From NCBI GenBank assembly GCA_965219445.1, contig CBDCNQ010000005.1, forward strand, positions 32,001 through 96,000: a stretch of 64,000 bases of DNA. The letters are read 5' to 3'. Below the pieces are notes generated by a model. The model worked only from the letters and a program-made list of their open reading frames with translations, did no database searches and was not told the origin of the DNA. This document shows, piece after piece, positions 476 through 9,850 of the stretch (its first letter is position 1; the number at the start of each line of letters is the position of its first letter). This stretch comes from Longimicrobiales bacterium. Lineage in GTDB: Bacteria > Gemmatimonadota > Gemmatimonadetes > Longimicrobiales > Gaopeijiaceae. The translations under genes were made by a program, and so were the position numbers.

Positions 476-919
476 ACGCGGAGACCGGGCGGGCGGCGGG
501 CCGACGAGATCGACCCAAACGTGCGCGCACACCTCGCCGTGCGTCCGTCGAGACCCTGCCAGCCACCTGGCGGACGCAGGCCAAGGCGCTCCGCCGGTAC
601 GGGGGCGAGACGCCGGCCGTCGCCGCTCGAAAGCTGCGCGGCCGAGCTCGAGACCACGCTCCGGGAGAGGGACGAGACCACCCTCTCGCTGACGGAGGCA
701 GCCAGGGAGAGCGGCTACTCCGCTGACCATCTCGGCCGCCTCGTGCGCGACGGCAAGATCCCCAACACCGGAAGGCCCGGCGCGCCCAGGATCGCCCGCT
801 CGATCCTGCCACGGAAGACCCAGCCGCCAGCCACACCGCTACTGGTGGAAAAGCATCGCCGAGGCGAAGTTTCCAACGCGCAGATCGTGCAGTCCATCAT
901 CGAGAGAGGAATCGAATGA
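472..919 (+). pseudogene. excisionase-like HTH DNA-binding protein, frameshifted near 624
   Basis: MNAETG...GETPAVA in one frame continues as LESCAAELE...LSLTEAARESGYSADHLGRLVRDGKI (HTH-like) in another; coupled by ATGA overlap to the integrase start at 916. Confidence 0.65.
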
Positions 920-1020
920 TGGCACGCACGAAACCTATCCGGCGCTCCTACGGCGCCGGCGAATGGGGCCGGAACCGGGTACGGGTCTTTCCCGATCCCA
1001 AGACCGGCCTGTTCCAGATC
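916..1020 (+). pseudogene. tyrosine integrase, 5' part (35 codons), interrupted by an inserted element
   Basis: MMARTK...KTGLFQI joins in frame to EWRDNG... at 6691 across the repeat GCCTGTTCCAGATC. Confidence 0.85.
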
Positions 1021-1168
1021 AACGGGCCGGGTGGAACATTGGTGGAACATATTGGACCTTCCCGGACCATTCTCCACAGGCCGAAAGTCCTTTACAGACA
1101 ACGATTTCTCCAATAACCACCGTCCCATGGCGTTCCTTGCGGTCCCAATCGATTCCATGTACTATTGA

Positions 1169-2344
1169 TTGCAGAAGGTGCAACGGCAAGTCATACACGG
1201 AATCGAGAGACACGCCATCAAACACCCCTCGAAACCCCTCAGCGCCTCATTCGTGAAGCACGTCAAGCGGCCGGGCCGGCACGGCGACGGCGGGCGCGGC
1301 TCGCACGGCCTCTACCTGCGCGTCTGGCGGCGTCCGAACGGACGCATCGGCAAGGCGTGGGCTCAGCGCCTCCGTGTCGGCGGCAAGGTCACGTCCCTGG
1401 GGTTGGGACCCTATCCCGTCGTCACGCTGGCGGAGGCGCGGGCGAAGGCGCTCGGGAACCGCCGCGCCGCCCACGCGGGACGCGATCCCCGGGGCGGCGG
1501 AGTTCCGACGTTCGAGGTGGCGGCCAGGAAGTTCATCAAGCTGCATTCGCGGACGTGGAAGGCCGGGTCGCGGCTCCCCCGGGAGTGGGAGCAGACCCTC
1601 GCGGACTACGCCCTTCCCATTGTCGGGCGCAAATCCGTGGCGGCGGTCACGACCGGCGACGTGCTGGCCGTGCTCACTCCGATCTGGCACACGAAGCCGG
1701 CGACGGCGAAGAAGGTCCGCCAGCGCATCGGGGCGGTGATGAAGTGGGCCGTTGCCCAGGGCCACCGCACCGACAACCCGGCGGGCGAGGAGATCAAGGC
1801 CGCGTTGCCGAACGGGAGCGGCCACACCCGCCACCATCGGGCGCTCCCTCACGACCGGGTTGCCGAAGTCCTCTCGAAGACCAGGAGCAACGTCAACGGC
1901 GTCGCCTTGCGGTTCGTCGTGCTCACCGCCTGCCGCGTGTCGGAGGTCGCCGGGGCGAAGTGGTCCGAGATCGACAGCGGCGTTTGGACGATCCCGGCTT
2001 CGAGGATGAAGACGAAGAAGGAACACCGTGTTCCGCTGTCGTCGGCCGCCTTGCGGGTGCTCGCCGAAGCGAAGTCCGATTCGCCGTTCGTTTTCCCCGG
2101 ACGGGGCGGGAAGCCGATTGCTCGCCAGTCCATCGGACGGGCGCTCAACGGGACGAAGGCGACGCCTCACGGGTTCCGTAGCTCGTTCCGGGATTGGTGC
2201 TCCGAGACGGGAGTTCCCCGCGAGGTCGCCGAAAGGGCGCTCGCACATGTCGTCGGGAACAGGGTCGAGGCCGCGTACAACAGGACCGACTTGCTGGAGC
2301 GCCGCCGCGAGGTCATGGAGGCGTGGGGGCGGTACCTGTCGTAA
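1169..2344 (+). CDS. P4-like tyrosine integrase (arm-binding domain plus catalytic domain)
   Basis: DG..GLYLRV and LGLGPYPVVTLAEAR arm-domain motifs; catalytic R (TACRVSE), HGFR, AH and Y (AAYNR); start codon uncertain. Confidence 0.92.
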   Translation: MQKVQRQVIHGIERHAIKHPSKPLSASFVKHVKRPGRHGDGGRGSHGLYLRVWRRPNGRIGKAWAQRLRVGGKVTSLGLGPYPVVTLAEARAKALGNRRAAHAGRDPRGGGVPTFEVAARKFIKLHSRTWKAGSRLPREWEQTLADYALPIVGRKSVAAVTTGDVLAVLTPIWHTKPATAKKVRQRIGAVMKWAVAQGHRTDNPAGEEIKAALPNGSGHTRHHRALPHDRVAEVLSKTRSNVNGVALRFVVLTACRVSEVAGAKWSEIDSGVWTIPASRMKTKKEHRVPLSSAALRVLAEAKSDSPFVFPGRGGKPIARQSIGRALNGTKATPHGFRSSFRDWCSETGVPREVAERALAHVVGNRVEAAYNRTDLLERRREVMEAWGRYLS

Positions 2345-2412
2345 GCCAGCCGACGCAGTGTTGAACACATTGTGGTCTGGCAAGGGGATGCTGCGCCCCC
2401 CTTCGACCCCCA
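2343..2412 (-). promoter_or_regulatory. diverged oriT-like site, inverted relative to the other copies
   Basis: Minus strand reads GGGGGCGCAGC...GCCAG...GGCTGGCTT, matching the ends of the copies at 6.3, 8.3 and 32.1 kb; followed by mobC/mobA-like debris. Confidence 0.5.
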
Positions 2413-2479
2413 GCCTCCGTTGCCGCTGCCGACGCAGTCGGCGGGGTCCTCGCCCCCCTTCCGGCGTGGCGCAGCGGCC

Positions 2480-2640
2480 GCAGCGGAGCGCAAGCGCACC
2501 CGGCAGGTCGCGCGCGTCGGCAAGCACTCAATCCATCGAGCGGGTGCTTGCGGCGATGGCCGCCGTCGGGAGCCCCGAAACCGATGGACATTAGGTTTGT
2601 GGCTCGCGGCACCCGCTCGGCCTGGGCGGCCTATTGGCGG
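2480..2640 (+). pseudogene. decayed mobC and relaxase 5' remnants
   Basis: ERKRTRQVARVG resembles the mobC remnant ERTREVARI; MDIRFVARGTRSA resembles the relaxase start MLVKFLVRGTGSA at 6035. Confidence 0.55.
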
Positions 2641-2842
2641 AGGCGAGGTCGGGCTCCGAGTCGGGCTGCAAACGGTGCACGAAGGCGTCGGCTGGGGGAG
2701 CGGTGCCCCCCGTTCGGGCTCATTCCGTTCGCCGATGCTCATCATGGGCCCTAAGATTACTGGGACACGTACACCCGATCGGCCCAGGGTGGGGTTCCTC
2801 AGCCGCGAGGCCGCCGGACAGTAGATTCAGGAGGTCGCCGCG

Positions 2843-5464
2843 ATGCTGACGTCGTCAAGAGGCCGTTTCCTCATCGCCGCTTTTTGTGGCCGCGCCGCGC
2901 TGCTGTTACTGCTGACCGCAGCGCCGGCGGCCGCCCAGCAAACGGGAACCATCAGGGGCACGGTAGTGGACGTGTCCGGCAACGCCTTGCCCGATATCTT
3001 GGTGACCGCAACCGGTTCCGGCGTGAGCGAGGAAGTCGTCACGGATGCTGAAAGCGCCTACGAATTCCCCGCTCTCGCCGCCGGCGACTATGTCGTAACC
3101 GCCACCCTGTTCGGTTATGCGCCCCGGGAGATTCAGGTCACCGTGGGCGCAGGTGCCGTGGAAACGGTCCCGATCGTTCTGGAGCCCACTTTCCGGCTCG
3201 ATCCGCTGAGCGTGGTGGCGGAGGAGCCCACGGTCTTCGCGCGCAATTTCGTCGCGGAACCGATGATCAGGCAGCAGTCGAACATGACCGCTGTGACGTC
3301 GGTGATCGACAACCTTCCCGGCGTGTCCGTCCAAGAGGGGGACGCGTACGCCTTTGACGACTGGTCGAGCAACGTCGTCATGCGCGGGTTCCAATCGACC
3401 ATCAACGATGCACAGATCGGTACCACCATCGACGGATTCCCCAATGGCACGTCGGACTACTGGAGCGGCGCGAAGGCGAACCGGTTCGTCGACCCGATGA
3501 ACCTCGGTGGGGTCGAGGTGTCGCAGGGGACCGCCGACATCGCCTCCCGGTCGGTCGAGGCGCTGGGCGGCACGCTCAATTTCTTGACGGCCGACCCGGC
3601 GGCGGAGCGGAGCCACACGGCGTCCGTCACGATCGGCGAGAACGAGGGCCAGCGGTTCGCCGCGCGTGTCGAGACCGGATCGTTGTTCGGCGGCACGACG
3701 CGGGCCTGGGTAGCCGCGATCCGGCAGGAGGCGACCGACTGGATGGAGGGCTCCGCAAGGAACGAGCGGGAGCACCTCGCCGCCAAGATCGTGTTTTCGC
3801 ACGGACCTCTCGATCTCACCGGCTACATGTCGCACGACGACATCCACGAGGATGTCTACCAACGGCTCAACGGCGAGGCGGACTTCAGGGCCGACCCGCG
3901 CTGGGACCGGCTGGTCGGCCACTGGCCCGGCGTGCCCTACCTGAACCAGTTCTACCGCCCCGGCTGGCAGACACGGCGCAAGAACACGCTCGCCTACCTC
4001 AAGGCCGACTGGTCCGTCAGCGAGTTGATCTCCCTGAGCGCGGGCGCGTACCATCATGACAACCGGGGCCGTGGCGACTGGTTGCCCCCCTACATCGTGG
4101 ACGTGGTGGACGACGGGAATCGGCCGGAGTCGGAGCTGGCGGGCCTCGCGCCGGTGCGGGGCGGCACGCAGCTCGGGGTAGTCCACTTCGTGGACGGCAA
4201 TGGCGTCGCCGTCGGACCGGCGCCGGGATGCACGTCGTCCTACATCTTCAACTACTATGGGTCGGGCGACCCGGAGGTCGACCCGGCGTGCCACCCCGGG
4301 GCGACCGCGGTTCAGTCGTACCGTCACAGCCATTACGGGAAGAATCGCCTCGGCGTCAACATCGACGGGGAGTGGTCCGTTTTGTTTGGCGGGGGAGGGG
4401 GCAGCGGGCTGCGGGCGGGCATCTGGTACGAGGACTCGCGGCGCGACCTCGGCCGGGACTGGCACCGGATGCTGGACCCTGCGCTCAACTTCAAGTGGGA
4501 CGAGCAGGCCTATTGGCACCAGTACGAGTGGGACTTTCCGCAGGACGTCTTTAAGTGGTACGTGGAGGAGACGCTGTACTTCGGCCCGTTCGAATTGGCC
4601 GGCGGCGTCAAGCAGTACCTTGTCTCCGTGTCGCGCGAGGACCAGTTCGGCATTGATCGGGACCTTGGTGTCGATTCCGATTCGGAGCTGCTCTTCTCCG
4701 GCGGCGTCACCTACGAGACGCCGGTCGAGGGCCTCGACCTGTTCGCGGGCTACGCCGAGAACTTCAGGGCGATCAGCAGCACGTTGCTCGAGGCCCCGAG
4801 CCGCAGTTTGGACCTCCTGGAGCCCGAGACCGCGTCGAACATCGATGTCGGGGTTCAATACTCCGGCGAGCGGCTCGCGCTGAGCGCCACCATGTATTCC
4901 ATCGATTTTGACAACCGGATCTTCTACCTCGGCCCCCAGACGCCCGCAGGACCCAACTACCTCATCCCCGGAGGGGGAGCCTACTTCAACGCGGGCGGGA
5001 TCGAAACGAGTGGTGTCGAGTTGGCCGCCACGGTGGCGATGCCGGGTCGGACATCCTTCTACACCGCGTTGACGCTCAACGACTCGAAGTACGTCGGGAC
5101 CGACGATCCGCTCGTTGACGCCAGCCAGGGCATTGTGCCCGGCACGGACGTTACGGGCGTACCGCCTCGGCTGTGGGTGGTGTCCCTCGACCGCACCGGA
5201 CCCCTGGGTGGCGGGCTGTCTGCGAAATACACGGCATCGCGCCGCGTCAGTCTGACGGCGGACTGGTACACCGACGCCTACTGGGTGGTAGACGCCTACG
5301 TCAGCTTCAGCGGCGAAGCGTTGAGCGATCTGTTCCGGGCGACGGAGTTCTCGATCGTGGCGAACAACGTACTCGACAGCCCCTATCTGTCCGCGATCAC
5401 CGAGAACGCGGCCTGGCTGGGCGCACCCCGGACGATATCGATGACCACGACCGTCTCCTTCTGA
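2843..5464 (+). CDS. TonB-dependent outer-membrane receptor with N-terminal carboxypeptidase-regulatory-like domain
   Basis: Signal peptide; GTIRGTVVD Ig-like domain; plug motifs LPGVSV and ALGGTLNF; LEPETA and NNVLD motifs; C-terminal Phe. Confidence 0.93.
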   Translation: MLTSSRGRFLIAAFCGRAALLLLLTAAPAAAQQTGTIRGTVVDVSGNALPDILVTATGSGVSEEVVTDAESAYEFPALAAGDYVVTATLFGYAPREIQVTVGAGAVETVPIVLEPTFRLDPLSVVAEEPTVFARNFVAEPMIRQQSNMTAVTSVIDNLPGVSVQEGDAYAFDDWSSNVVMRGFQSTINDAQIGTTIDGFPNGTSDYWSGAKANRFVDPMNLGGVEVSQGTADIASRSVEALGGTLNFLTADPAAERSHTASVTIGENEGQRFAARVETGSLFGGTTRAWVAAIRQEATDWMEGSARNEREHLAAKIVFSHGPLDLTGYMSHDDIHEDVYQRLNGEADFRADPRWDRLVGHWPGVPYLNQFYRPGWQTRRKNTLAYLKADWSVSELISLSAGAYHHDNRGRGDWLPPYIVDVVDDGNRPESELAGLAPVRGGTQLGVVHFVDGNGVAVGPAPGCTSSYIFNYYGSGDPEVDPACHPGATAVQSYRHSHYGKNRLGVNIDGEWSVLFGGGGGSGLRAGIWYEDSRRDLGRDWHRMLDPALNFKWDEQAYWHQYEWDFPQDVFKWYVEETLYFGPFELAGGVKQYLVSVSREDQFGIDRDLGVDSDSELLFSGGVTYETPVEGLDLFAGYAENFRAISSTLLEAPSRSLDLLEPETASNIDVGVQYSGERLALSATMYSIDFDNRIFYLGPQTPAGPNYLIPGGGAYFNAGGIETSGVELAATVAMPGRTSFYTALTLNDSKYVGTDDPLVDASQGIVPGTDVTGVPPRLWVVSLDRTGPLGGGLSAKYTASRRVSLTADWYTDAYWVVDAYVSFSGEALSDLFRATEFSIVANNVLDSPYLSAITENAAWLGAPRTISMTTTVSF

Positions 5465-5637
5465 CGAATCGCCAGGACGCCCCTTTCTTGGACGGTTTTC
5501 AGCCGTTGGGTGGCGGGGGCGAGGAGCCGAGCGATAACTCAGAGCCACGCGCCGGATCACCAGTTCGCCGACCCGTGATCGCCGCCACATGCTTCTTCCG
5601 GATGAGCGGCAGTGTCCCGCGCAGATCCCACGACAGA

Positions 5638-6035
5638 CGTCGCGGAGCGGGTCGAACGTCCTCCGCCAACCCGGAGGGGCGATGTTGAGGCTCCGGCCGG
5701 TCTCCAGGTCGCACCGTGCGGCGAGGACATGGACGTGAGCGCTGCCGCCGCGCTCGCGGTGAAGCACGACCCCCTGGGCGTAGCGGTCGGGTTTCGAGCC
5801 CCGCCCAGGCCGTCTCTTCGAAGGTGTCCAAAACCTCGCCGATCTGGTCGTCGGTCGGAGCGTCCTCCGGCGCCCAGGCGATTACGCCTGAGGTGTACTT
5901 GTGATCGAAGGGAAGCGTGTCGGCCACGGCGGCCACTTGGTGGGGATCCCCCCGGAGGACCTCGACGCCTGCGCGCGGCTTCCCGGCCGCATCCCGCGCC
6001 GAGCCGGTCCCGCGGACGAGGAACTTAACGAGCAT
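5638..6035 (-). pseudogene. MobA/MbeA-like relaxase, frameshifted and truncated
   Basis: MLVKFLVRGTGS...VLRGDP...YTSGVIAWAPED, then frameshift to VLHRERGGSAHVHVL...LETGRSLNIAPPGW (HUH region). Confidence 0.8.
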
Positions 6036-6039
6036 CGGT

Positions 6040-6190
6040 GTCCGGGCACCCAGCGGGCGATCTGGTTGAGGTCGTTGTCGATGCGCGCCACCTCGCGGGT
6101 GCGCTCTCGCACCAGATCCGACAGCGTCAAGCCTGCGGAGCGCGCCTTGGCGTGCCACTCGGCACGCGCTCCGCCTCGCTGGCGCGGAGC
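6040..6190 (-). pseudogene. MobC relaxosome protein remnant
   Basis: EWHAKARSAGLTLSDLVR...EVARIDNDLNQIARW, directly upstream of the relaxase remnant. Confidence 0.75.
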
Positions 6191-6251
6191 TTCACCCACA
6201 CGGCGCGTCCCGGGCTCATGACGCGCCGTTGCCGTTGGGGGGGTCAGAGGA

Positions 6252-6347
6252 GGGGGCACAGCCCCCCGCCAGCCCCTGCCGGGGACGCGCGAAGCGTGGC
6301 CCCAAGGGGTAGGCTGGCTTGGGCACCTTAAGGAGCCCGAGCCAGCC
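6252..6347 (+). promoter_or_regulatory. oriT-like site (ColE1 bom-like) with downstream hairpin
   Basis: CGCCAGCCCCTGCCGGGGACGCGCGAAGCGTGGCCCCAAGGGGTAGGCTGGCT, repeated at 8334 and 32068; adjacent to mobC/mobA. Confidence 0.7.
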
Positions 6348-6690
6348 CTGCGATGGCCTCCGAAACGACGCTCCGGGCACCGCCCGGGAATGCCGCCACT
6401 CCCGAGGCTCCAGCACCGGGATACCGCCCCACAATCGGCGACGCGCGGAGAGGTTGGCGCTTCGGGCCGTCCGGGTTACCGTTCACAGGACCCTGGGAGC
6501 ACAACCGGAAACCTGCCAGCATTGGTTTCTGGACTGGGCCGGAACACAGTGGACGCGCAGGGACCGCGTTGGAACAGGCATCCGGGGTGTCGCGTCCGAA
6601 TAGTGTACCGGCGGTGATACGGAGACTCCCCGTGTCGCTATAACTCCATGATTTACAACGATTTACGATTTGGAGTGCCTGTTCCAGATC

Positions 6691-7749
6691 GAGTGGCGCG
6701 ACAACGGGCGCAGGCTCACAAGGTCGCTGAAGCACCGCGACTGGAGACGGGCGAAGCGGCAGGCGGACGAGTTCGCCGCCGGCTACCTCGGGCCGGAGCT
6801 CCACCGCAAGGCGGAAGCCGAGTCCGAGCCGCTCACCCTGGAGACGCTTTTTGACATCTACGGTGAAGAGGTGACGCCGACCAAGCGTGGACAGTCGCGG
6901 CTGCACGACAGGGCCGCGATGAGGACGTTCCTCGGGTGCTTCGGACGGAACCGCGACCCCGCCACGCTGTCCCAGCGGGACTGGGACCGGTTCATCCGGG
7001 AGCGGCGCGCGGGCAGAGCCGGCCGCAGCGGCAAGCCGGTGGCCGACCGGACGATCGAACGGGACCTCAAGTTCCTGCTCGCGGTCCTCAACTGGGCCGC
7101 GAGGTCGAGGGACGAGAGGGGAAGGCTCTTGCTCGAGTCCAACCCCCTCAGGGGCCTCAAGACGCCGAAGGAGAAGAATCCTACCCGGGTGCTGCTCACT
7201 GAGGCGGAATACGAGGCCATGCTTCGGGTGTCCGTGGAGGTGGACTGGCGCTTTCACGTCGCTCTCGTGCTCGCGCACGAGACGGGACACCGCATCGGCG
7301 CCATCCGTCAGTTGCGATGGTCCGACATCGACATGGAAGCTCGTGTCATCCGGTGGCGAGGCGAGCATGAGAAGACCGGCTACGAGCACCGGACCCCGGT
7401 GAGTGCCGAAGCGCTCGGCGTCCTCGAAGAGGCGCGGTGGCGGAACCCCGGGATCGGGGACCTTCCGGTGTTGCCCGCGCCCAAGCATGCCTCGATGTGC
7501 GTGGGCCAGTGGCCGATCCGTGACTGGTGGGAGAAGGCCGAGGTGCTCGCAGGGCTGGAACCCAAGCGTGGGCGCGGCTGGCACTCCCTGAGGCGGAAGT
7601 TCGCCTCCGACCTGATGGACCAGCCGCTCAAGGTCCTCTGCCAACTCGGCGGCTGGAAGACGGCCCAGACAGTGCTCCAGTGCTACCAGCGGGCCGACGA
7701 GGACCAGCTCAGGAAGGCCCTCGACGACCGCCCGAGGGCCTGCTCTTAG
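6691..7749 (+). pseudogene. tyrosine integrase, 3' part (352 codons) of the gene begun at 916
   Basis: Catalytic motifs ETGHRIGAI, EKTG, HSLRR, GGW and QCY are intact; N-terminus displaced by the inserted element. Confidence 0.9.
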
Positions 7750-7751
7750 CC

Positions 7752-7797
7752 CAAATAGCGGGAATCAAATAGCGGGAATCGGACTAACGATTCCCGT
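7752..7797. repeat. integrase arm-type repeats
   Basis: CAAATAGCGGGAAT tandem x2 (7752-7779) plus a partial inverted copy GATTCCCG, between the integrase stop and the tRNA remnant. Confidence 0.65.
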
Positions 7798-7805
7798 AAG
7801 TCCTT

Positions 7806-7834
7806 TGGGCGTAGCAGGATACGAACCTGCGACC
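7806..7834 (-). other. tRNA 3'-end fragment (att core)
   Basis: Minus strand GGTCGCAGGTTCGTATCCTGCTACGCCCA gives T-stem GCAGG/CCTGC, T-loop, acceptor 3' strand and discriminator; no 5' half. Confidence 0.75.
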
Positions 7835-7837
7835 TAA

Positions 7838-8099
7838 TGCACATCAGACAACGGGGTGCATGTGCACCGAAACGCCATTTCCATGTGCGCGCCAGCGCTC
7901 CCGTATGTGGCTGCCTGTCTTACAGTTGCGGCACGGCCGCCGGAGCGGCGACGCCGCTCCGGAGCTTTCGGCCGAAGAAGGGAGCGACCCCCCGGATTCG
8001 ATGCCTCGATCGGCATCGCGGAGGGTTGGCATGTGCACACCCATGCCACCCTCCCACGGGGGTCGCTCCCCTCCAGCAATCCCTAGCGGGAAGGCCATC
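7838..8099 (+). other. conserved structured non-coding element, copy A
   Basis: Homologous to 33911-34169 (minus strand) and 33645-33757; nested stems preserved despite substitutions. Confidence 0.7.
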
Positions 8100-8227
8100 A
8101 AGCGCCGCTGCGAGCGCGGCGTATCAACGAATCCGGCCGCCGGTCGCGGCTTTTCACCAGCTAGGTGGCTCGGCAAGTCGTCCCAGTGAGGTCGGCGTCG
8201 GCGCTCGACCAAGCCCGAAACTGCCCC

Positions 8228-8285
8228 GAGGTGGTTGAGGTTGCCGCCGATGCGCGCGACCTGCCGGCCGCGTGCGCGCCATGGC
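8228..8285 (-). pseudogene. mobC remnant
   Basis: RQVARIGGNLNHL next to an oriT copy. Confidence 0.55.
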
Positions 8286-8316
8286 CTGCCGGAGCGCGGG
8301 CGTCCAGGGGATCGAA

Positions 8317-8415
8317 GGGGGCGGAGCCACCCTCGCCAGCCCCTGCCGGGGACCCGCGAAGCGTGGCCCCAAAGGGTAGGCTGGCTCATGACTGCTAACG
8401 GGTCGTGAGCCAGCC
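8317..8415 (+). promoter_or_regulatory. oriT-like site with hairpin
   Basis: Near-identical 53-bp core to 6267-6319 and 32068-32120. Confidence 0.7.
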
Positions 8416-8476
8416 TTCGCGCCCCCGCTCTTCAGCGCCTGACGGACTCGTCCGCCGACACTGCGAGCGCGGCGGA

Positions 8477-9709
8477 TCAGCGAGCCGGTCCGGCCTCCGG
8501 GTCGCGACTCTTGTCGGCCAGGTACGCCGCCCAGTCATCCATAAGTCGACGTCGTCGCTCGAACAGGTCCGTGCGCCGATAGGCCACCTCGACTTTGTTT
8601 TGGACCACATGCGCCAGCGCCGCTTCGATGACTTCGCGCGGATGATCCGTCTCTTCTGCCGCCCAGTCCCGAAAGCTTGAGCGGAAGCCGTGCGGCACGG
8701 CCGCGATCTTGCAGTTCCGGAGAAGCCGGCGCAGCCGCTTTTCGTAGAGCGGCTTGCCACCCCCACGGGTGAACACCAGCGAACTGCCGTCCCCGAGCTT
8801 GCGCGCCGCGCTGAGAATCTCTGTGGCGCGGCGGCACAGCGGCACCCGGTGCTCGCGCTGCGCCTTCATCCGCGTGGCGGGAATCGTCCACACGCCCTGC
8901 CTTCGATCGATCTGCGCCCACTCGGCCCCCCGGACCTCGCCCCACCTCGCCGCCGTCAGCACCACGAACTCAAACGCGAGCTTGACGACCGGCTGCGCCC
9001 CCGACCCCCGCACCGTCTCGATCGCCGACGCCACGTCGCGATGCGGCAAGGCCCGCATGTGTGTCACCACGTCGTTCTGCGCTCCGAGGATCGGCCCGAT
9101 TCGGTCGCATGGGTTGTCGGTCCTGAACTCCATCGCCACGGCCCATTCCAGCACCGTGCGGATACGTTGGTGCACGTGCCGGGCCGTGGGCGCCTTCACG
9201 TGCCAGATGGGTGTGAGGATCTCCAGCACGTCGGCGCTCGTCACCTCCGAGACCGCCATCTCGCCGATGCGCGGGAAGGCGTAGCGCCTGAGGCTCGAAA
9301 TCCACTCGCGGCTATGACCCGGACTGCGCCAACCGGCCCGCTTCTGTTCCATCACCCTCACGGCGGATTCCGCGAAGCTCGGCACGCCCTGCGTGCGGCG
9401 TTTCTCGGCGAGCGGGTCGCCGCCCGAGCGCGCGAGCTTGCGGTTGGCCAGCGCCTGCTCGCGGGCCTCGGCCAGCGAAATCAGCGCCACGCTGCCCAGT
9501 CCGAGCTCGCGATTGCGGCCCCGGATCGCGAGCCGCTGAATCCAGCTCCGCGTTCCCGTAGGCTGCACGTAGAGGTACAAGCCATTGCCGTCGCAATGTC
9601 TGCCGGGCGGGGCCGTGCGCACGAAGGCGGCCGACAACGCCTTGTCGGGATGGCGGCCCTTGGCCTTGGTTTTCCGAGGCGGGTTGGCCGAGTGCTTCAC
9701 ACTATTCAT
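8477..9709 (-). CDS. P4-like tyrosine integrase
   Basis: DGNGLYL, ELGLGS..ISLAEAR, TAARWGE, HGFRSSFRDW, AH, VAYRR. Confidence 0.93.
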   Translation of the reverse strand: MNSVKHSANPPRKTKAKGRHPDKALSAAFVRTAPPGRHCDGNGLYLYVQPTGTRSWIQRLAIRGRNRELGLGSVALISLAEAREQALANRKLARSGGDPLAEKRRTQGVPSFAESAVRVMEQKRAGWRSPGHSREWISSLRRYAFPRIGEMAVSEVTSADVLEILTPIWHVKAPTARHVHQRIRTVLEWAVAMEFRTDNPCDRIGPILGAQNDVVTHMRALPHRDVASAIETVRGSGAQPVVKLAFEFVVLTAARWGEVRGAEWAQIDRRQGVWTIPATRMKAQREHRVPLCRRATEILSAARKLGDGSSLVFTRGGGKPLYEKRLRRLLRNCKIAAVPHGFRSSFRDWAAEETDHPREVIEAALAHVVQNKVEVAYRRTDLFERRRRLMDDWAAYLADKSRDPEAGPAR

Positions 9710-9850
9710 TCCACAATAATATAGGGGATGCAAGCGGATATCAAGGGACGCTACGGGTGGCTCAGGGCGCTGTAGAACAGTCATAACCGTTTAGGATATA
9801 ACTGTTTATAGCACTTACTAGATCCCTACGGACATCGGCAGACTATGACT

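Follow-up and report, generated by a model that had tools for sequence, protein, structure and literature searches.

What becomes of an integrative and conjugative element (ICE) when a second element settles inside its integrase gene? The question is raised by a stretch of 64,000 nucleotides from a Longimicrobiales bacterium (the window; contig CBDCNQ010000005.1, positions 32,001 to 96,000), in which an insert of 5.67 kb parts the beginning of a tyrosine integrase gene from the rest of it. Coordinates are window positions unless a contig is named, and contigs C2-C5 belong to the source genome, G000. An earlier note on this DNA had proposed that the insert uses the integrase gene of a co-resident element as its attachment (att) site and thereby locks that element in place until it excises. 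It is very probable, from sequence comparison, that the insert is a small integrative satellite that uses codons 31-38 of an ICE integrase gene as its attachment site and splits the gene after codon 35. The satellite is likely a parasite of this ICE; that it locks its host in place is improbable. Gene content predicts the host to be an ICE that is present in many copies and carries type IV secretion genes. Upstream on C5:1-33,000 are genes for AlpA, TrbC pilin, a VirB4-like ATPase, CagX/TrbG, TrbI, TrbL, VirB8, VirD4, TrbB, and ArdC, and the split gene is taken to be the integrase of this ICE family because these secretion and conjugation genes lie upstream of it.

The host gene lies in two pieces on the plus strand. 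The N piece (916..1020, codons 1-35) shares 71-100% identity with the N-terminal parts of 17 uninterrupted gene copies in G000. The C piece (6691..7749, codons 36-387) matches PF00589, contains no stop, and is 98% identical to an intact paralogue. An exact 14-mer is present at 1007-1020 and again at 6677-6690, as the earlier note had stated, and cannot be extended either way. Deleting 1021-6690 (5,670 bp) produces 387 codons without a stop. The rebuilt protein agrees with its closest intact paralogue (C4:248662) at 378 of 387 positions, and its catalytic set (R236, K263, H333, R336, W357, and Y367) occupies the same positions in that paralogue. All of these catalytic residues are in the C piece. 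Thus, the earlier claim that excision would yield an uninterrupted 387-aa tyrosine integrase with all catalytic motifs is borne out.

The 14-mer repeat alone is not significant, as 58 of 200 dinucleotide shuffles of 916-7749 contain some exact repeat of that length. The insertion is judged to be real because 17 other copies of the host gene in G000 read continuously across the junction. Thirteen of these encode 387 aa, two have an altered C end, one is interrupted further on by another island, and one is truncated. The codon 35/36 junction is therefore occupied in 2 of the 19 copies in G000, one in the window and one on C3. The satellite carries no replacement sequence for the host gene. In other words, the host gene is broken while the satellite is inserted, and no conserved in-frame restart before the C piece was found in the relatives compared.

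Further evidence comes from recurrence of the junction in other genomes, which the earlier note had suggested looking for. The search covered the best 80 of 266 genome loci and the best 80 of 181 metagenome loci for the satellite integrase, together with 201 family genomes and 401 order genomes. Merging duplicates (L001 with G069, L002 with G102, L003 with G178, L004 with G320, and L005 with G258) left ten sources. The closest loci among the best 80 of 266 came from Longimicrobiales or Gemmatimonadota. In the order-level search 9 of 401 genomes matched, all within the family of the source, and a pattern search across the phylum returned 4 of 401 genomes, each already in the known set. Interruption at the same codons was found in eight of the ten sources (G000, G069, G056, G182, G178, G258, G418, and L111), always at one base position and in one orientation. 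The satellite integrases of the ten sources share 87-99% identity with one another and form one tight clade (85-100% identical; support 100/100) that is separate from the integrase of a 17-kb island on C2. The next homologues beyond this clade are at most 67% identical. The bounded elements measure 4.4-5.9 kb and differ in cargo. Among 129 loci with enough upstream DNA, genes of this ICE lie directly upstream in only 3, which belong to the close clade; they are absent in the other 126, nearly all of which hold more distant integrases.

Are these repeated insertions or copies of one? The 105-bp left flank differs from that of the window at 6, 10, 14, 15, and 19 positions in five sources, and at least six host alleles are seen at the occupied junction. 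In a tree that left out two near-duplicate and two broken G000 copies, six split copies were scattered among 16 intact ones, and a single clade was rejected (p-AU 7e-68). The split C pieces contain no stops and have a dN/dS of 0.27 compared with 0.30 among intact copies; therefore, they appear to have been interrupted recently. Between the window and C3 copies no difference is seen in the insert or in the adjoining 101 bp on the left and 188 bp on the right, after which identity falls to 84%. This pattern points to homologous recombination, and the C3 copy was rejected as an independent insertion; the two G000 copies were counted as one event. It is likely, from such comparisons, that they and some other copies spread by homologous recombination between ICE copies and not by fresh integration. 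Repeated independent insertion is nevertheless indicated across the eight sources with at least six host alleles, which upholds the proposal that the satellite uses the integrase gene of a co-resident element as its preferred attachment site.

Comparison with relatives also placed the inferred crossover. The attL core (1007..1027, plus strand) consists of a B arm (1007-1013), a 7-bp overlap (1014-1020), and a P' arm (1021-1027). Likewise, the attR core (6677..6697, plus strand) consists of a P arm (6677-6683), the overlap (6684-6690), and a B' arm (6691-6697). The earlier note had pointed to the 14-bp repeat; the comparison narrows the inferred crossover to the 7 bp of the overlap. In the predicted attP, inverted arms of 7 bp enclose the 7-bp overlap; the arms are complementary at 6 of 7 positions here and at all 7 with the P' arm that is more usual among the relatives. 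Short repeats 10-11 bp apart flank the core and are kept across relatives. On the left, alignment of ten elements shows invariant blocks that are predicted arm-type repeats (1031..1147, plus strand), with direct copies at a spacing of ~11 bp from 1031 and inverted copies at 1122 and 1142. On the right, alignment of six elements shows four direct copies at a spacing of ~10 bp (6539..6576, plus strand), which are predicted P-arm repeats. An overlap between inverted arms with flanking arm repeats is the usual layout of lambda-type integrase sites.

Variation within the overlap fits this assignment. Most elements have C as the last overlap base; in G418 attL and attR both carry A there, and in L111 both carry T, which would be expected if the two partners must be identical across the 7-bp overlap for crossover to occur. 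Such coordinated change at the two ends agrees with repeated integrations through matched overlaps and would hardly follow from a single old event. The overlap 7-mer occurs 1,583 times in G000, and therefore the overlap alone does not explain why eight of ten sources share one junction. The left arm of the predicted attP matches the arm in the ICE gene at 7 of 7 positions in the window. The predicted attP is non-coding, and the split gene belongs to the flanking ICE.

What does the insert encode? Its tyrosine integrase (1169..2344, plus strand) has a P4/CP4-type domain set, with PF13356 (Arm-DNA-bind_3), PF22022 (Phage_int_M), and PF00589 (Phage_integrase) all over cut-off. The label "P4-like", used in the earlier note, is presumably apt; NCBIfam PRK09692 scored 104 bits against a cut-off of 434. 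The true start of this gene is likely 1217, a placement to which 375-aa homologue clusters and aligned start codons point. In the ten-element alignment, codon 1217-1219 is ATC in four elements including the window, CTG in three, and ATG in three. A non-ATG start may keep expression of the integrase low. A promoter scan gave none at threshold, and a weaker promoter-like pair 5' of 1169 was noticed by eye only. The cargo is an 873-aa TonB-dependent receptor (2843..5464, plus strand; PF00593, PF07715, and PF13620).

Mobilization functions are present mainly as remnants. A frameshifted and truncated MbeA-like relaxase remnant in two frames (5633..6056, minus strand; NF047848 E 4e-9, below cut-off) spans codons 35-185 of a sister frame of about 540 codons. 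It is adjoined by a MobC/NikA-like remnant recognized from its translation (6050..6259, minus strand; PF21983 E 0.006, below cut-off). No intact relaxase was found in the insert, and the remnant is present in the window and G069 and in none of the other four of six bounded elements. Seven long relaxase frames occur elsewhere in G000. Beside these remnants lies an origin of transfer (oriT)-like site (6240..6319, plus strand), in which a hairpin is followed by a conserved 13-mer (6307-6319). The 13-mer has 44 genome matches at no more than one mismatch, most of them behind the same kind of hairpin, and the motif is present in all six bounded elements. The place of 6240-6319 beside mobC and relaxase makes it a putative oriT. 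A more degenerate oriT-like site, accompanied by 32 codons of a relaxase (2536-2631; E 2e-7 in tblastn with a full-length relaxase as query), is located at 2340..2631 and is repeated elsewhere in the genome; its motif is closer to consensus at the same spot in G178 and G182. The earlier note had listed an integrase, a TonB receptor, arm-like repeats, and oriT sites as contents of the insert. The first three stand, with the arm-like repeats kept in relatives. As for the oriT sites, one is clear (6240-6319) and a degenerate one is present near 2345; a further site at 8307-8386 belongs to a neighbouring element. Among the insert's scanned open reading frames (ORFs), matches were confined to the integrase, the receptor, and the mobilization remnants, with no mating-pore gene and no primase or capsid match. 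AlpA was found in none of the six bounded elements, in a search whose control matched the ICE copy at E 5e-34.

These features are consistent with the following model. The satellite's own tyrosine integrase would recombine at the site formed by codons 31-38 of the ICE integrase gene, and excision at the 7-bp overlap would rebuild that gene exactly. The excised circle could then be moved from the putative oriT by the relaxase of a sister element and the secretion system of the ICE; borrowing is proposed because the satellite encodes neither a relaxase nor a pore. Since the satellite lacks AlpA, the ICE may provide the trigger for its excision. The satellite would gain a conserved landing site with many copies, at no cost to the cell and near to the transfer machine. 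Intact paralogues could act in trans, so that the block on the host ICE is likely to be leaky.

Several observations weigh against the satellite account as a whole. Two of the ten sources (G102 and G320) are off-target: one insertion interrupts a GmrSD-domain gene, the other a gene with no Pfam match, and both retain 6 of 7 overlap bases. The host-gene copies are mosaics, which weakens the tree test, and the window, C3, G069, and G182 copies share an identical 105-bp left flank and may stem from one insertion. Some copies are dead: G182 is without 14 bp of attR and is unable to rebuild the gene, and in G056 the right end is missing, cut off at a transposase-like frame. The putative oriT role is drawn from position and from resemblance to a nick motif, for which a literature search gave nothing relevant. 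Finally, the junction of the excised circle, which the earlier note had proposed as a check, was not among the junctions listed in six public runs (X14-X19), all of which were kept as contigs with rare forms dropped, so that this is no evidence of absence. Taxon names suggest a possible sponge habitat; 13 further runs, small-share ones included, entered neither this read check nor the question of habitat. Contigs in five runs cross attL (starting at 991 in X14, X17, X18, and X19, and at 1006 in X16), and they hold at most 30 host letters, just under the bridging rule of 31. A joint between 1006 and 6677 in X14 was not counted as excision, as any paralogue could give it.

Could the junction arise in some other way? 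It is extremely improbable that it is an assembly chimera or a product of chance microhomology. The genome is rich in repeats and shuffled sequence yields 14-mer repeats readily, as noted above, but seven other, independent assemblies have the same junction, as do contigs from the five public runs. A single old insertion that later spread solely by homologous recombination between ICE copies would account for the identity of the window and C3 copies across insert and near flanks, and for the left flank shared by G069 and G182. However, five other sources differ inside or beside the core, the overlap base varies jointly at attL and attR, activity of the integrase is evident from two off-target insertions, and the split genes have not decayed. 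As the sole route this history is largely refuted, and its probability is very small. A loosely specific integrase that lands here mainly through the high copy number of the gene, with no selected tropism for the ICE, has somewhat more in its favor and is still improbable. The overlap is short, two of ten insertions are off-target, and the host gene reaches about 40 copies per genome. Such looseness sits poorly with the full match between the attP left arm and the ICE gene, and with the single base position and orientation of all eight on-target cases. Furthermore, G102 and G320 hold only partial host-gene matches, which fits use of a secondary site when the preferred site is scarce, although both assemblies are fragmented. 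The satellite with a preferred site in the ICE integrase gene is thus the reading favored over these three.

A separate matter is whether such a satellite acts as an excision-gated switch, holding the ICE until its own excision and leaving first or together with its helper. The insertion parts the first 35 codons from the catalytic part without replacing them, and the C piece is preceded by no conserved in-frame start. The satellite integrase runs in the same orientation as the ICE operon, a scan found no terminator between attL and its start, and AlpA is absent from all six bounded elements and present in the ICE. The same logic has been proposed for helper-embedded phage-inducible chromosomal islands (HE-PICIs) and for streptococcal integrative and mobilizable elements (IMEs) (PMC10111431; PMC5357655). 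Yet G000 holds 13 full-length intact paralogues, two of them with the same right end as the window ICE, and each of the six other on-target genomes has 6-40 host-gene matches, fragments included. Only 2 of 19 copies are filled in G000, the window ICE is already broken in virB4 and trbB, and sister integrases land in many other ICE genes. Escape by silent change at the target site was not seen either, the 13 intact copies having no silent-change excess there (0.147 vs 0.135). A switch is therefore unlikely, and the lock proposed by the earlier note comes out weak: the N-terminal 35 codons are indeed cut off with no conserved restart, but intact paralogues, a damaged host ICE, and the absence of an excision product from the listed junctions stand on the other side. 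A wired order of departure is a tentative possibility, slightly less doubtful than the switch. Here, a satellite seated in the excision operon of the ICE and without a directionality factor would be turned on by AlpA/Xis of the ICE or by promoter read-through, and only its exit would rebuild the integrase of the ICE. If so, the ICE could not depart ahead of its parasite, at any rate where no paralogue acts in trans, and the satellite would be one branch of a tyrosine-integrase radiation that divides the genes of one ICE family as landing sites.

The landing of sister integrases was seen in G000 itself. A tblastn search with the satellite integrase gave 41 hits, of which 28 were examined, and 17 of these 28 related integrases have ICE backbone DNA just upstream. 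The parts of the ICE used include virB4, virD4, trbB, ardC, the gene after virB8, the 3' end of a helix-turn-helix (HTH) gene, and int. Therefore, the integrase gene is one landing site among several. The 17-kb island on C2 (C2:207056-224417), whose integrase is of a different clade, interrupts another copy of the ICE integrase gene near codon 170, in the opposite orientation.

How does the satellite compare with known elements? By analogy, an ICE-embedded satellite is the description that suits it best, as a variant on the streptococcal IMEs that reside in ICE genes and on HE-PICIs. As in IMEs, the integrase is at one end, attL and attR share a short direct repeat, the empty site is known, and mating-pore genes of its own are missing among the ORFs scanned. 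Canonical IMEs encode an intact relaxase, whereas the satellite does not; relaxase-free IMEs are a described class. One such case, the relaxase-free genomic islands of Vibrio, reportedly use a chromosomal site. The Vibrio islands are moved by SXT/R391 ICEs and resemble the satellite in consisting of an integrase, an oriT (putative here), and cargo, with relaxase and pore supplied in trans, as would be the case here; they encode their own directionality factor and an ICE-like oriT, whereas the oriT-like motif here is shared with relaxase-encoding sister satellites (PMC5704250). In Tn5252-family ICEs, traG, maff2, and snf2 are the genes disrupted by streptococcal IMEs, IME_oriT inserts in the oriT of Tn916/ICESt3, and excision of streptococcal IMEs upon ICE induction has been proposed (PMC5357655; PMC5704250). 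Like these, the satellite is small and non-conjugative, inserts site-specifically in a conserved part of the helper ICE, disrupts without replacement, and is proposed to use ICE transfer. Unlike them, it targets the ICE integrase gene and not a conjugation gene or oriT, lacks an intact relaxase, and is found in Gemmatimonadota and not in Firmicutes. The gene-disrupting streptococcal IMEs use serine integrases and those with tyrosine integrases target oriT, whereas here a tyrosine integrase is combined with an integrase-gene target.

HE-PICIs insert in late genes of prophages with occasional off-target events, and their excision has been shown by experiment, while excision here is predicted from sequence (PMC10111431). 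The two share a single tyrosine-integrase clade with tropism for helper genes, co-oriented insertion, an attP without replacement sequence, occasional off-targets, and many damaged helpers (PMC10111431). They differ in helper (here an ICE instead of a prophage) and in target (here an early gene, for recombination, instead of a late one); the int-alpA module is absent here, and the scanned ORFs gave no primase or capsid match. A likeness also exists with archaeal suicidal integrases of the SSV1/pTN3 type, in which site-specific integration splits an integrase gene into N and C pieces and an intact relative rescues it in trans; those elements split their own gene, with attP inside it, whereas here a second element with its own integrase splits the gene of another (PMC8371274). 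Nesting of elements within ICEs is common (PMC9585547). No case of an integrase gene as insertion target was found in the literature searched, which covered few subscription papers and no supplements, so that absence from print is not established; the accessible part of PMC13626063 contains none.

If the satellite account is correct, it would extend helper-embedded satellites to a new target class, the integrase gene of the helper itself, and to tyrosine integrases in an uncultured phylum. It would also supply an example for a still open proposal in work on IMEs, namely that embedded elements coordinate their excision with the helper. The att sites, mapped to the base and accompanied by natural overlap variants, make specificity and directionality testable with synthetic DNA. 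In such genomes, a split integrase gene need not be a pseudogene and can instead be an occupied site.

The host ICE shows further features of its own. Just 5' of the integrase is an HTH gene (521..919, plus strand; weak HTH_17, E 0.008, below cut-off) whose stop overlaps the integrase start and which is likely an excisionase or regulator gene. Two 14-bp direct repeats at the right end (7752..7779, plus strand), with similar repeats after paralogues, are predicted arm sites of the ICE integrase. The virB4 gene of the window ICE is in six pieces with frame changes, due to decay or assembly error, and its trbB is split by another small element (C5:12190-19030) that carries C5 methylase and Vsr genes. 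A conserved ICE gene encoding 300 aa (L194:16240-17142, ending at window position 142) has no Pfam match. A fairly strong lead connects it to Replic_Relax, and it may be the relaxase of the ICE; a search of G000 with PF13814 gave no match, but its control also matched nowhere. Single genomes can carry an unusually high ICE load, with 40 matches to the ICE integrase in G258 and 39 in G418, mostly full length.

The integrase gene's 3' end also shows junctions. The right end of one ICE copy lies inverted in the last codons of a sister ICE integrase, just past the catalytic tyrosine codon (C5:461572-463932 and C4:223775-226135), and two further right-hand junctions are at about the same spot (C5:1206928 and C5:1353395). 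The 3' end may serve ICEs or other elements as an additional site. At the right end of the window ICE, 7804-7832 on the minus strand resembles by eye the T-arm and acceptor half of a tRNA; ARAGORN found no tRNA in the window. The same tRNA-like end is seen at C5:579033 and C4:203404. A second small element abuts this right end (7838-9784), with the oriT-like site at 8307-8386 and its own P4-type integrase at 8477-9784 on the minus strand.

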